From: a phage
Assembly (NCBI GenBank): GCA_024875585.1
Contig: GCA_024875585.1_4107.1
DNA: 64,000 nt
Reading direction: 5' to 3' (one strand)
The position numbers were made by a program, and so were the translations under genes. A model generated the notes under the pieces. That model was given only the letters and a program-made list of their open reading frames with translations, ran no database searches and was not told the DNA's origin. Shown piece by piece: positions 18,467 through 22,591 of this stretch. Numbering within the stretch: position 1 is the stretch's first letter; every line of letters begins with the position of its first letter.

Positions 18467-18488
18467 TCTAAATTTTTGAGGATTGTAT

Positions 18489-19337
18489 ATGTTGGACATT
18501 TCAGATTTTCTTAATTTTAAAAAGTATTCAGTACTTGAACATATCAACGAATTTCTGAATTCCCCAACACCATTTGGTATCAGTACATCAGATTCATACG
18601 ATGGATATAGAATCTTCCCATGCAATGACTTTCAAATTTCTGTCAAAAAAGGTTTTACAAAAGAAGTTGCAATTCGTGATGTAGTAATGTATAGCGATTC
18701 TTCTATTTCTTACTGTCATGATGTGAACAATTTTGAATCTCTTTCAACACCTAATTGTTCATACTACAAATCCCATGACACGATGATGTATAAAGAACAA
18801 CATATCAATGGTGTTTCGTTCTACAAAACTAGCAGTGATAAATCATATACATCTAGAGATGATTTTGGAAAATACACATGTACTATGCACACGGATAATG
18901 AAAAAACAAATTACACTCATTCATTCGAGTCCAAATTCCAAGAGAGTGAAGTTTCAAATATCACTATACAAGAACAGGTTTCAGAAGGCATTGTATATCG
19001 TAGTACTGCATTCTTTCGCATGAAAGATGTTGCCACAGGCAGACCAATGATGTACAATATTGACATATACATGAAAGGTGATATATCAGAAGTAGTGATT
19101 AGTACTGGTTATCGTGAAAAATATACAGTTACAATGGAATCACCAGATGCATCGTTAGTTCACCTCTTTAACAATTTATATACATTCCAATTCGAACTTA
19201 GTTTAGACTACAATGAATATCAAATATTCGATATATTAAAAAGTAATATTATTAATAAGTTAGAATATTACTACAAGTTAGGTGGTAAGATGTGCATAGT
19301 TAATACTATGTTACATAACATAAAAGAAACATTATAA
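18489..19337 (+). CDS. hypothetical protein
   Basis: ORF; ATG 18489 after GAGGA. Confidence 0.6.
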   Translation: MLDISDFLNFKKYSVLEHINEFLNSPTPFGISTSDSYDGYRIFPCNDFQISVKKGFTKEVAIRDVVMYSDSSISYCHDVNNFESLSTPNCSYYKSHDTMMYKEQHINGVSFYKTSSDKSYTSRDDFGKYTCTMHTDNEKTNYTHSFESKFQESEVSNITIQEQVSEGIVYRSTAFFRMKDVATGRPMMYNIDIYMKGDISEVVISTGYREKYTVTMESPDASLVHLFNNLYTFQFELSLDYNEYQIFDILKSNIINKLEYYYKLGGKMCIVNTMLHNIKETL

Positions 19338-20511: not shown

Positions 20512-21366
20512 ATGAAACTTTATCTAATAGTTGACTATAATAAAGAATATGCTGGAAATTTTTCTGAAGATTCAGAAGGACATTGTACCTCTACTAATGT
20601 TAATGTGCGTTCCAGTAATACACATGAGCATGAATCAATTACTAATCTAAAAAATTTCATCACATATCGAGCCTTTGAAACCAATTTTTGTCGTTCGAGA
20701 TATTCTAAGTTTGAGTACCCATTAATTGATGTTCCTGATGAATTGATGTTCCAGCTAATGTTAACTGGAGTTCAAGATTATGATTATATTGCTTATAATC
20801 ACATAACAAAGAAGATTTACATTGGAACATCAGTACACGATACTTCCATGTATGCATCATGCCCAGATGATCGAATGAAGCATAGAAATTCATACTATAG
20901 TGGATCAGTTGGTTCAAATAATTCATCAAATAAAAATTCATTCTTTGAGTACGTGTATGATTACCATCACGAGAAAAAAGAACGTGAAGATTACTGTATA
21001 GAGATTGATAGTACTAATGGATATGAAGACGTAAAAGAAGCTCTTATGCCATACATTATAGAAAAATACTACAAAGATTTTCAGTACTGTAGTAATTTTC
21101 TAATCAGAAATTCTATTCAAATCGGTCGTCAATCCACTGCATACGCTATGTACTACAGTGATTCTCCAGTTGTAGCAGGAAATGAAAGGGGTGATATCCT
21201 ACCAATTCCACGTGAAGATATGACATTCATTTTTACATCTTTTATTGAGGATGATGAATTGTACGTTAAAAATAAGCATCGTTTCATGCCAAGTAAAATT
21301 GAGATTATTAGAAGCATCAGTGTTGATATATTAACCAATTTTACTGAAAAAACTGAATATAACTGA
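20512..21366 (+). CDS. hypothetical protein with family-A-like motif (DELMFQLMLTG)
   Basis: 284-aa ORF with GGAG RBS. Confidence 0.6.
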   Translation: MKLYLIVDYNKEYAGNFSEDSEGHCTSTNVNVRSSNTHEHESITNLKNFITYRAFETNFCRSRYSKFEYPLIDVPDELMFQLMLTGVQDYDYIAYNHITKKIYIGTSVHDTSMYASCPDDRMKHRNSYYSGSVGSNNSSNKNSFFEYVYDYHHEKKEREDYCIEIDSTNGYEDVKEALMPYIIEKYYKDFQYCSNFLIRNSIQIGRQSTAYAMYYSDSPVVAGNERGDILPIPREDMTFIFTSFIEDDELYVKNKHRFMPSKIEIIRSISVDILTNFTEKTEYN

Positions 21367-21383
21367 GACAAAATAGAAGTTAA

Positions 21384-21392
21384 TGATATAAT
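21384..21392 (+). promoter_or_regulatory. TGATATAAT extended -10 element
   Basis: same 9-mer as other intergenic promoters; directly abuts a terminator-like hairpin. Confidence 0.3.
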
Positions 21393-21396
21393 GTGA

Positions 21397-21426
21397 GGTG
21401 ACAGTATATACTGTCACCTTTTTTTA
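21397..21426 (+). terminator. strong rho-independent terminator
   Basis: perfect palindrome ggtgacagtatatactgtcacc followed by TTTTTTT. Confidence 0.8.
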
Positions 21427-21994
21427 ATCCTGAAAGGTTCCTATAAGGAAATGATTAAAAGCCTAATCCACTCGAAAATGTAGAGGGTAGATGAGTAGTC
21501 CTTTCAGTACGAACAGCAGATGAAACCCGTTAGATGATGGCATAGTTTGAACCACTCACGGCAATGCGGCTGTATAAAGAACTCCAATAGGATAAAGAGA
21601 GTTCCTAGATAGACATATAAGGATCGCACCTTACCAATTATCTAAGGGAGATTTCATAAGAAATATGCGGTCGGAATTATACAATATAGTTGCGTCCAAA
21701 TTTTGTGAAATCAAATACAAGTACTGGTCATATGGTATTTGTATTATGTGTCGGGATGTTTAAGACCGACGACCGTTGCTACAAGAACCGCGATAGAGAG
21801 AAACAGAGCAACCCGCTTTCGTCTCGTAAGAGAATTCGTGATATGAACTATGTGAAGGCCACCAGCGTCAAACTTTTTTGTTCTTTCCCCTGCGGGGGGG
21901 GATGAAATATGCTCAAGCAAACCTCGTCAATATTAATTAAAAGACTTTATAATACTTGTAGAATTGTACATGCACCGCATGGAGAATTCTACTG

Positions 21995-22591
21995 ATGTTG
22001 ATTACATCAACATCACGTATATTCATTGATGTTTCCATAGGAATAATGATGGCATTTATTAAAAAAGAAAAAACTATTACTTATAAAACTTTGAATTTTG
22101 ATGATTGTATTAATCAATCACAGGACGAAAATATTTTTACTGGATATGTGGTTATTAAAGAAAAAGGATGCATTTCTTATATAAAGGAATTGCAAAATGG
22201 CATTGAAGTCACTTCAGTTAAATTACTTCCTACACAAAAACCAACAATATCAAAAGCCCAGTACGGTAATTATTTCGAGGAAAGATACAGTAATAATTTA
22301 ATAAGTGTTAAAGCTCATATTGTAAAAGGAGAACTAGAAGGAGAATATAGAAAATTCAACCCACAAGGAAAATGTGTTTGGGTTAAATACTACAATTCAG
22401 GTGTTGATATAACATCTGAAATTATAGAGTTCTTAGGGTTGTCATGTACACCTGAAACTCTTCATGACTACAAATTTAATACTGAAGAAGAGTTTAATCT
22501 GATGATGCGTTATGGATCACATTTTAAATTTTTATATGAATATAACGTTGACAGTAGTATTTTTGATAAAATAGTACATAACTGTCTATAA
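21995..22591 (+). CDS. hypothetical protein with MORN-like G.Y..F...G repeats
   Basis: ORF; start uncertain (alternative ATG 22046 has an AGGAA RBS). Confidence 0.5.
   Translation: MLITSTSRIFIDVSIGIMMAFIKKEKTITYKTLNFDDCINQSQDENIFTGYVVIKEKGCISYIKELQNGIEVTSVKLLPTQKPTISKAQYGNYFEERYSNNLISVKAHIVKGELEGEYRKFNPQGKCVWVKYYNSGVDITSEIIEFLGLSCTPETLHDYKFNTEEEFNLMMRYGSHFKFLYEYNVDSSIFDKIVHNCL

Follow-up and report, generated by a model that had tools for sequence, protein, structure and literature searches.

Among bacterial RNAs, large ones that combine many pseudoknots with invariant junctions are rare, and those large-RNA classes of this sort whose function is known are ribozymes or the cores of ribonucleoprotein particles. 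GOLLD and ROOL, which occur next to tRNA genes, are together with OLE the kind closest to the element described here, a ~510-nt structured RNA on the + strand of a 64,000-nt stretch of phage DNA (contig GCA_024875585.1_4107.1 of GenBank assembly GCA_024875585.1; hereafter the window), which is not so placed. GOLLD, ROOL, and OLE (RF01998, RF03087; PMC12286853) are stand-alone RNAs of 500-800 nt with pseudoknots and conserved junctions; all were found by comparative analysis, and the first two are often borne by phages or prophages, like the RNA of the window. With raiA, they make up a group of unexplained classes that recently yielded unexpected RNA-only assemblies (PMC12286853). Homo-oligomeric cages have been shown for GOLLD and ROOL. 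The hosts also differ, since GOLLD, ROOL, and OLE come from Lactobacillales or from rumen or extremophile Firmicutes and our RNA from mobile elements of Enterobacterales. Unlike those three, it forms four to five diverged paralogues per genome in jumbo phages. Their covariance models matched neither the window nor its relatives. What is known is therefore the kind, a large ornate RNA of mobile elements; what is new, as far as a search of Rfam 15 and of the literature can tell, is the class, its multicopy organization, and its tractable Escherichia coli phage carriers.

The comparison with described RNAs was otherwise negative. At gathering thresholds, the 4,227 covariance models of Rfam 15 gave no match in the whole window and only ffs in ten relatives taken with their flanks. 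At E values up to 10, the window and Citrobacter copies gave trivial sub-threshold matches confined to the terminator hairpin, including the sole match to CsrC (14 bits). The covariance search proposed by an earlier reading of the letters of this DNA (hereafter the original prediction) thus returned no relevant family. That reading had also seen no tRNA-like T-arm, and ARAGORN found neither tRNA nor tmRNA genes in the 64 kb. None of the phage and PGAP record annotations describes the element as an RNA, and a full-text search of the literature found no description of it, which is not proof of absence. A parallel may exist in a related group of jumbo phages: four + strand “lncRNAs” of 236-619 nt were defined by RNA-seq in PA5oct, two of them very abundant throughout infection (PMC7318152). 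PA5oct RNAs 001, 002, and 004 gave no nhmmer match to our family profile and lack its signature motifs, and a structure is not known to have been published for the PA5oct transcripts.

The phage of the window belongs to the jumbo phages of Asteriusvirus type (121Q/PBECO4-like), and in BLAST searches the 801 bases around the element are 90-94% identical to those of ~30 genomes of the 121Q/PBECO4 type. The original prediction had singled out a non-coding island of about 570 bp, locally richer in G+C, with a promoter-like element abutting a palindrome, and had proposed a structured non-coding RNA (ncRNA), a replication or packaging element acting in cis, or a decayed gene. The island is real. The element is intergenic between two intact open reading frames (ORFs), the longest ORF between 21367 and 21994 has 71 aa, and the G+C content is 0.40-0.44 over 21400-21950 versus ~0.31 in the flanks. 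In phage 121Q, the gap between the homologous genes gp415 and gp416 carries no annotation. Compared with 121Q segment by segment, the RNA stretch (21425-21935) is 98.8% identical, the Dam methylase gene 95.8%, the downstream gene 92.3%, the upstream gene 85.7%, and the two short spacers ~80%. The RNA also aligns end to end, at 72-74% identity, with Salmonella phage 7t3, Yersinia phage fHe-Yen9-04, and Pectobacterium phage CBB, while the flanking genes give only local matches of 40-80 nt to these phages. The most conserved DNA of the neighborhood is the RNA element, not a protein gene.

The conserved stretch is a structured RNA. We collected ~100 member loci from viral, genome, and metagenome collections and built a family profile from such loci; removing redundancy above 92% identity left 49 full-length members. 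In the window, blastn and nhmmer found no second copy. Using 31 members, RNAalifold proposed 72 pairs, 45 of them with compensatory change, and pseudoknots were added by an all-against-all search of the alignment columns. Together this gave a model of 17 helices, three of them pseudoknots, with 87 pairs; 96.4% of its cells form standard pairs across the 31 sequences. When partners were shuffled, 76.9% of the cells were paired, and none of 500 shuffles reached the observed value; when partners were slid by one to three columns, the fraction fell to 36-43%. The covariation score was 0.551, versus 0.192 after shuffling and 0.07-0.10 after sliding. Two-sided compensatory changes occur in 63 of the 87 pairs, and the main helices were recovered again, independently, from the 49-sequence set. 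Pairs of G and U are frequent, e.g., at columns 468/479 (UG in 23 sequences, CG in 8) and 470/477 (GU in 30), and since they would be A-C on the other strand, the RNA must be read from the + strand. An RNA-level structure is under selection on this strand.

The comparison with related phages, which the original prediction had suggested, hence found conservation of structure, and with 17 helices supported by covariation, conservation above that of the neighboring genes, and a promoter of its own, the structured ncRNA option is strongly supported. Two stem-loops noticed in the letters (gtcgg...ccgac and cccctgcgggg) turned out to be helices H8 and H12 of the conserved structure (Table 1). The 22-bp perfect palindrome and its T-run are present as described, and the palindrome, as the original prediction had not foreseen, is not part of the conserved RNA, whose profile match starts at 21425. 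Near-invariant unpaired junctions are found along the RNA. At more than 400 nt, with covarying helices and pseudoknots, conserved unpaired nucleotides, and no coding capacity, the element fits the description of a large ornate ncRNA, a descriptive kind and not a family of homologues. An optional hairpin module (21650-21712 in the window; also in L010 and L177, two of the collected loci, which we designate by L numbers) has a conserved loop and 3' strand, UACAAUAUAG AUCCGUCCAAAAUUUGAG; it stands after UAAGGGAG or in the H11 loop, and in some members at both places.

Table 1. Features of the RNA locus and its flanks, in window coordinates (H, helix; PK, pseudoknot)
Feature	Position	Strand	Description
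Upstream flanking gene	20512-21366		284 aa; homologue of 121Q gp415
Sigma-70-type promoter	21365-21392	+	-35-like GAGACA (21365-70), 16-nt spacer, extended -10 TGATATAAT (21384-92)
Terminator-like hairpin	21395-21425	+	22-bp perfect palindrome GGTGACAGTATATACTGTCACC (21397-21418), then seven T (21419-21425)
Structured ncRNA body	21425-21937	+	~510 nt; nhmmer match to family profile positions 3-508 of 513, E = 1.2e-122
PK-a	21430-21507	+	5' leader CUGAAAG (21430-36) pairs with CUUUCAG (21501-07), the loop of H2; 6/7 pairs with compensatory change
Variable hairpin	~21438-50	+	between the PK-a strands
H1	21463-73/21483-91	+	hairpin between the PK-a strands; loop GAAAAUGUA conserved; 7/8 pairs with compensatory change
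H2	21495-97/21508-10	+	hairpin; compensatory change in 2/3 pairs
H3	21513-17/21569-73	+	100% paired, 3 covarying pairs; encloses variable insert with H4
H4	21527-30/21558-61	+	
H5	21579-84/21599-604	+	variable hairpin; 6/6 pairs covary
H6	21618-21/21630-33	+	hairpin
Invariant stretch	21641-48	+	UAAGGGAG
Optional domain	closed by 21650-53/21709-12	+	missing from some members
71-aa ORF	21690-21905	+	TTG start; not a gene
3' core	21714-21847	+	H7-H11, PK-b, PK-c
H7	21714-26/21733-45	+	13-bp hairpin; 11/13 pairs covary
PK-b	21727-32/21842-47	+	H7 loop with 21842-47; 99.5% paired, 6/6 pairs covary
H8	21749-52/21767-71	+	
PK-c	21775-79/21808-12	+	GUUGC with GCAAC in the H10 loop; 100% paired
H9	21789-93/21836-40	+	
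H10	21796-800/21816-20	+	
H11	21823-25/21830-32	+	
Motif m1	21861-71	+	ACCAGCGUCAA; followed by a run of six U (21874-79)
H12	21887-91/21896-900	+	CCCC (21887-90) pairs with GGGG in the G-run (21894-901); one-sided C/U changes only
Near-invariant stretch	within 21887-21930	+	GGGGGGAUGAAA
Motif m2	21921-30	+	ACCUCGUCAA
Spacer	21938-21994	+	poorly conserved; TATAAT at 21948-53; 79.7% identity to 121Q
Downstream flanking gene	21995-22591		198 aa; homologue of 121Q gp416

Two motifs near the 3' end of the RNA, m1 and m2, share the form A-Y-C-N-CGUCA-R and change in parallel. Across the 49 members, Y is the same base in both motifs in all (18 C, 31 U) and the final R in 46, figures that are descriptive because the permutation test ignores phylogeny. 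Jumbo phage RaK2 has CUUCA in both motifs, a Serratia member (L117) has CGACA in both, and both sites read ACGAAG in a divergent subfamily from metagenomes. This parallel change suggests that one reader, be it a protein, an RNA, or an active site, recognizes the two sites. Both motifs form the 3' side of a local hairpin, opposite a 5' strand GAYG(N); a complementary partner for m1 and m2 was looked for, and none was found. RNAalifold had proposed a long-range pairing of GAUGAG (21490-95) with CUCGUC of m2 from invariant pairs only, which we rejected because RaK2 and L117 alter m2 but not GAUGAG, and 12 members have GUUGAG. The divergent subfamily (L232, L195, and L213; G+C 0.43-0.44) matches the profile in its 3' half only (positions 290-497), and its gene context, with an MFS transporter and BNR-repeat proteins, is uninformative.

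The absence of coding capacity is equally clear. The 71-aa ORF, which the original prediction had already found unconvincing, corresponds to a stretch that is free of stops in only 2 of the 49 members; indels are not multiples of three, and variability shows no codon-position bias (0.248, 0.256, and 0.238 at positions 1, 2, and 3). GenBank records place small ORFs over several members (7t3_0243-0245 at L002:1548-2148, Yen9-04 g047/g048 at L003:1532-2013, 121Q gp516 at L010:48400-48555). Such ORFs lie on different strands and at different positions from one record to the next, and it is almost certain that they are spurious. Two other coding candidates were rejected: a peptide starting from the AUG after the G-run, because its frame relative to m2 varies between members, and a 32-aa ORF after a Shine-Dalgarno-like UAAGGGAG, because 14 nt separate the two and several members lack the region.

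The RNA seems to have its own promoter. The promoter-like element that abuts the palindrome in the original prediction has 10 of 12 matches to the sigma-70 consensus plus the TG extension, which qualifies it, by consensus only, as a sigma-70 promoter. The same TGnTATAAT is found ahead of every aligned family member. The window has 18 occurrences of this motif on its + strand and 5 on its - strand, and base composition leads us to expect, by our own estimate, ~6 per strand by chance; the excess on the + strand agrees with gene orientation. Since this count is above chance, the motif behaves as a real promoter type of the phage. It is probably the early one, and it would presumably be served by the host polymerase.

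The palindrome and its seven T are the sole terminator-like site in 21200-22150. With an 11-bp stem, five G-C pairs, a 4-nt loop, and T7, they form a predicted intrinsic terminator, situated between the -10 element and the RNA body and outside the conserved RNA. Syntenic copies in 7t3, Yen9-04, CBB, and GAP32-like phages have a hairpin and T-run in the same place with different, covarying stems. Such a 5' hairpin was scored in 9 of 46 members. These nine belong to the syntenic “A” lineage, and the other paralogues were scored as lacking it. This hairpin probably terminates transcription of the upstream 284-aa gene, forms a 5' cap hairpin on the RNA, or does both; it would be located at the 5' terminus of the RNA or close to it. 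A second kind of terminator-like hairpin, followed by a U-run, lies after m1 and inside the conserved unit in 27 of 46 members; at this position, the window copy has only the run of six U.

Two observations concern the sequences 3' of m2. In the spacer of the window, a hairpin GUAGAAUU...GAAUUCUAC (21958-65/21985-92) lies beside GGAG (21981-84) and the ATG (21995) of the 198-aa gene, whose ribosome-binding site it could occlude. Many relatives, L024, L013, L059, L002, L083, L124, and L062 among them, have a second conserved module 20-150 nt 3' of m2 that is absent from the window copy. It consists of one or two hairpins with loops GAACG(N)AGUGAG, then AAAUUCUUGAC, a covarying hairpin with a C(GNA)G triloop, and GGCAAAU. 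Its position beside the RNA means that the RNA unit may be longer in these members or that the module is a separate adjoining element.

The family extends well beyond the first reading, which had not foreseen four to five paralogues per genome nor a reach into temperate elements of bacterial chromosomes. The whole 121Q genome has exactly four copies (at ~90.3, 192.8, 247.5, and 326.6 kb). They share the + strand, each has a G+C content of ~0.40 in a genome at 0.34, and the parts that BLAST could align are 74-85% alike; the last one, copy D, sits between two minus-strand genes. More generally, BLAST found four to five matching places per record in 62 jumbo-phage records, with 71 records matching overall. 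A scan with a degenerate motif identified 43 true member loci among 47 matches in viral contigs and 9 true members among 77 pattern matches in bacterial genomes, and a scan of metagenomes gave at least ~40 further members among the matches listed. The nine genome members come from enterobacterial assemblies; one sits on the complete chromosome of Serratia fonticola GTA-SR07, and others on large contigs from Citrobacter amalonaticus, Enterobacter chinensis, and Silvania. Lysogens with a single copy include Serratia fonticola GTA-SR07, Citrobacter amalonaticus P55, and Enterobacter chinensis 170198.

In prophages, the copies lie just downstream of the integrase, mostly a large serine recombinase and otherwise a tyrosine recombinase, and are convergent with a cI-type repressor gene, beyond which there is a Cro-like gene. 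This context was found in 15 of 103 member loci. The RNA is present in 2 of 5,426 complete E. coli genomes. In one, LR-29-1, an unannotated copy resides in a ~10-kb island adjoining ffs (L140:7791-18400). The genes of this island include IS3, an integrase fragment, DUF4326, DUF488, dual-OB-domain genes, and a small recombinase, and there is no cI repressor. The temperate copies hold an accessory (“moron”-like) position with a predicted private promoter. In the phage collection, no sequenced temperate phage had the RNA, and RaK2-like jumbo phages were its only carriers. No homology was detected between either of the two 284-aa ORFs of the window and the 286-aa gene that accompanies the RNA in prophages.

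What could such an RNA do? We consider it probable that positions 21425-21937 (+) of the window are a stand-alone ncRNA gene of a family outside Rfam 15, acting in trans and with a benefit that is generic to mobile elements. Of the parts of this reading, we hold the structured RNA gene to be practically certain, and we lean only slightly toward action in trans. In favor of the latter are the individual promoter of each copy, the terminator-like hairpin of most copies, the absence of a conserved orientation or downstream gene across paralogues and element types, the high copy number of lytic phages, and selection on unpaired junction bases along the whole length. The benefit would be generic because lytic and temperate elements share the RNA. 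The host RNA polymerase would transcribe it from the start of infection, or constitutively from a prophage. The product would act through its fold, be it the RNA core of a ribonucleoprotein, a decoy, or a ribozyme, and not by antisense pairing or at the DNA level. One factor or active site would recognize both m1 and m2. The weakest step is the benefit itself, which may be host takeover or counter-defense in enterobacterial hosts of mobile elements. As an abundant trans-acting RNA, it would resemble the protein-sequestering 6S RNA and CsrB/CsrC, where the fold rather than antisense pairing is the active principle and short motifs are repeated, as m1 and m2 are. It differs from them in having no mimic of an open promoter, no array of GGA loops, and a far more complex fold.

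Several points weigh against this interpretation. The energy of single-sequence folding is unremarkable (z = -1.4), so the case for structure rests on comparison. We infer the ends of the RNA, its abundance, and its very expression from the consensus of promoters and terminators; a literature search turned up no carrier transcriptome. The only terminator-like site of the window copy immediately follows the -10 element, ahead of the RNA body, and since no terminator precedes the 198-aa gene, this copy could be a long leader. In the 27 members with the internal hairpin, the hairpin is upstream of the conserved region from H12 to m2, which fits conditional read-through better than a simple RNA acting in trans. 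No protein partner, target, or catalytic signature was identified, and the neighboring genes give no functional hint; Pfam recognized the Dam methylase alone among the genes next to the window copy.

A bolder version, which we regard as possible but doubtful, is that these RNAs form a new class of catalytic or self-assembling RNA of Enterobacterales mobile elements. The core would process itself or another RNA at m1 and m2, or would form a particle with a host factor that subverts the cell, and lytic jumbo phages would use this particle in four or five specialized paralogues and temperate elements in a single copy.

The main rival explanation is that the RNA controls transcription in cis, as a sensor or antitermination leader that decides on read-through at the hairpin after m1. 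The read-through would go into downstream early genes in the phages, or antisense into cI or late genes. The persistence of H12, GGGGGGAUGAAA, and m2 beyond the internal hairpin and U-run favors this idea, as do the missing terminator before the next gene in the window, the prophage copies convergent with cI, where read-through would be antisense to the repressor gene, and the near identity of m1 and m2, each of which can pair with either of two GAYGA strands and thus allow alternative conformations. The RNA is also like HK022 put, EAR, and riboswitch or T-box leaders in lying directly downstream of a strong promoter, in having a terminator-like hairpin within the conserved unit in most members, and in its possible alternative pairings. 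It differs from them in having no fixed downstream gene, no Rfam match, and one copy that opposes its neighbors. Downstream genes vary among paralogues and element types, and copy D of 121Q is wrongly oriented for sense targets. The RNA is also five- to sevenfold larger than put, EAR, and riboswitch or T-box RNAs, and ~500 nt with this number of pseudoknots is far above what HK022 put, EAR, or T-boxes have. Moreover, the sequence of the terminator stem varies widely among members, and in the syntenic lineage the terminator precedes the RNA and would be beyond its control. We judge control in cis to be unlikely.

A self-processing ribozyme is a still less likely alternative. Cleavage, or cleavage and ligation, at m1 and m2 would release or circularize a segment of 60-110 nt, or set the 3' end. 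This would account for the fact that the two motifs stay alike through four independent kinds of change (Y, R, the G-to-U of RaK2, and the U-to-A of L117). The size of the RNA, its several pseudoknots, and its near-invariant unpaired junctions are also in line with it, since large pseudoknotted bacterial RNAs with conserved junctions are typically ribozymes and ribonucleoproteins; RNase P RNA and group I and II introns have a similar size and the same features. Yet a protein reading both sites explains the parallel change equally well, no Rfam ribozyme model matched, and a hammerhead-like reading fails.

The known ribozymes were considered one by one. A group I intron (P3-P7 pseudoknot with a P4-P6 domain between its strands) was rejected because the element interrupts no gene, gives no Rfam match (RF00028), and has, by eye, a different order of helices; the place for P4-P6, from the PK-c strand to the H9 strand, spans only 9 nt. 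A group II intron (5' GUGYG, domain V with AGC triad and GNRA loop) was rejected because there is no match to RF00029; H12, the only 3' hairpin, has a variable loop and a C-run/G-run stem, and no hairpin resembles domain V by eye. RNase P RNA (CR-I/CR-V P4 pseudoknot, GAAAGUCC, ACAGAA..GGCUUA) matched no Rfam model. The likeness seen by eye between ACGACCGUUGC..AGAGAGAAACAGAGCAACCCGC and what we take to be ACGACCAGUGCAACAGAGAGCAAACCGCC of E. coli M1 RNA was rejected. Its GAGAG stretch is a strand of the covarying helix H10 and not a T-loop junction as in M1. In the hammerhead reading (CUGANGA...GAAA core and NUH site, read as GAUGAG/CGAA/GUC), the equivalents of U4, A6, A13, and A14 vary and no Rfam model matched. 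A topology like that of the hepatitis delta virus ribozyme, compared by hand, did not fit the order of helices.

It is very improbable that the copies are replication origins primed by a structured RNA, like ColE1 RNA II or the R-loops of T4 oriF/oriG, with several per 350-kb genome. They share with these a promoter-driven RNA of ~500 nt, a length that resembles RNA II, and several copies per large T4-like genome; the four to five copies are spread around the genome, in 121Q all in one orientation, a strong promoter precedes each of them, and a G-run and a U-run lie near the 3' end. They differ from them in lacking a skew signature, in occurring in prophages and islands, and in being under structural selection over the whole length. 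The extrema of the cumulative GC skew of 121Q coincide with switches of gene strand, not with the four copies. Single copies are found between int and cI and in a small island, where no search for replication genes was made. Selection on ~17 helices and on unpaired junction bases goes far beyond the needs of a primer. The replication or packaging element of the original prediction therefore finds no support. Finally, a decayed or unrecognized protein gene or a purely DNA-level site (for packaging, recombination, or protein binding), which the small ORFs annotated in several GenBank records and the near-palindromic H12 might suggest, has a negligible probability, because these ORFs are inconsistent, 47 of 49 members lack an open 71-aa frame and show non-triplet indels and no codon periodicity or third-position excess, the H12 palindrome is invariant in its right arm only, and the compensatory changes and strand-specific G-U pairs place the selection on RNA rather than DNA.

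The surroundings of the locus deserve a few remarks. In 7t3, Yen9-04, CBB, and RaK2, the same order is found: a 284-aa-like gene, the element, a 416-like gene, a Dam methylase, and a cytidylyltransferase. The window has two ORFs of exactly 284 aa, 1.2 kb apart (18483-19337 and 20512-21366), without detectable homology to one another. In the 121Q record, positions 135194-137161 (L008:35195-37160) are a stretch of ~2 kb without annotated genes between a run of ~60-aa ORFs and gp266; in a profile search, it was not a member of the RNA family.

These results have consequences for the annotation and the biology of these elements. In ~70 published jumbo-phage genomes, the loci are left blank or filled with spurious small ORFs, and their annotation can now be corrected. 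The family is found in phages that infect E. coli (121Q, PBECO4, phAPEC6, and Sharanji among others) and in prophages or islands of Citrobacter, Enterobacter, Serratia, and E. coli, and with such carriers genetics, RNA-seq, pull-downs, and cryo-electron microscopy are immediately feasible. The presence of four to five copies in lytic jumbo phages and of one in temperate elements points to a function that is general to mobile elements, and functions of this type are of interest for the conflict between phages and their hosts and for candidates for phage therapy.

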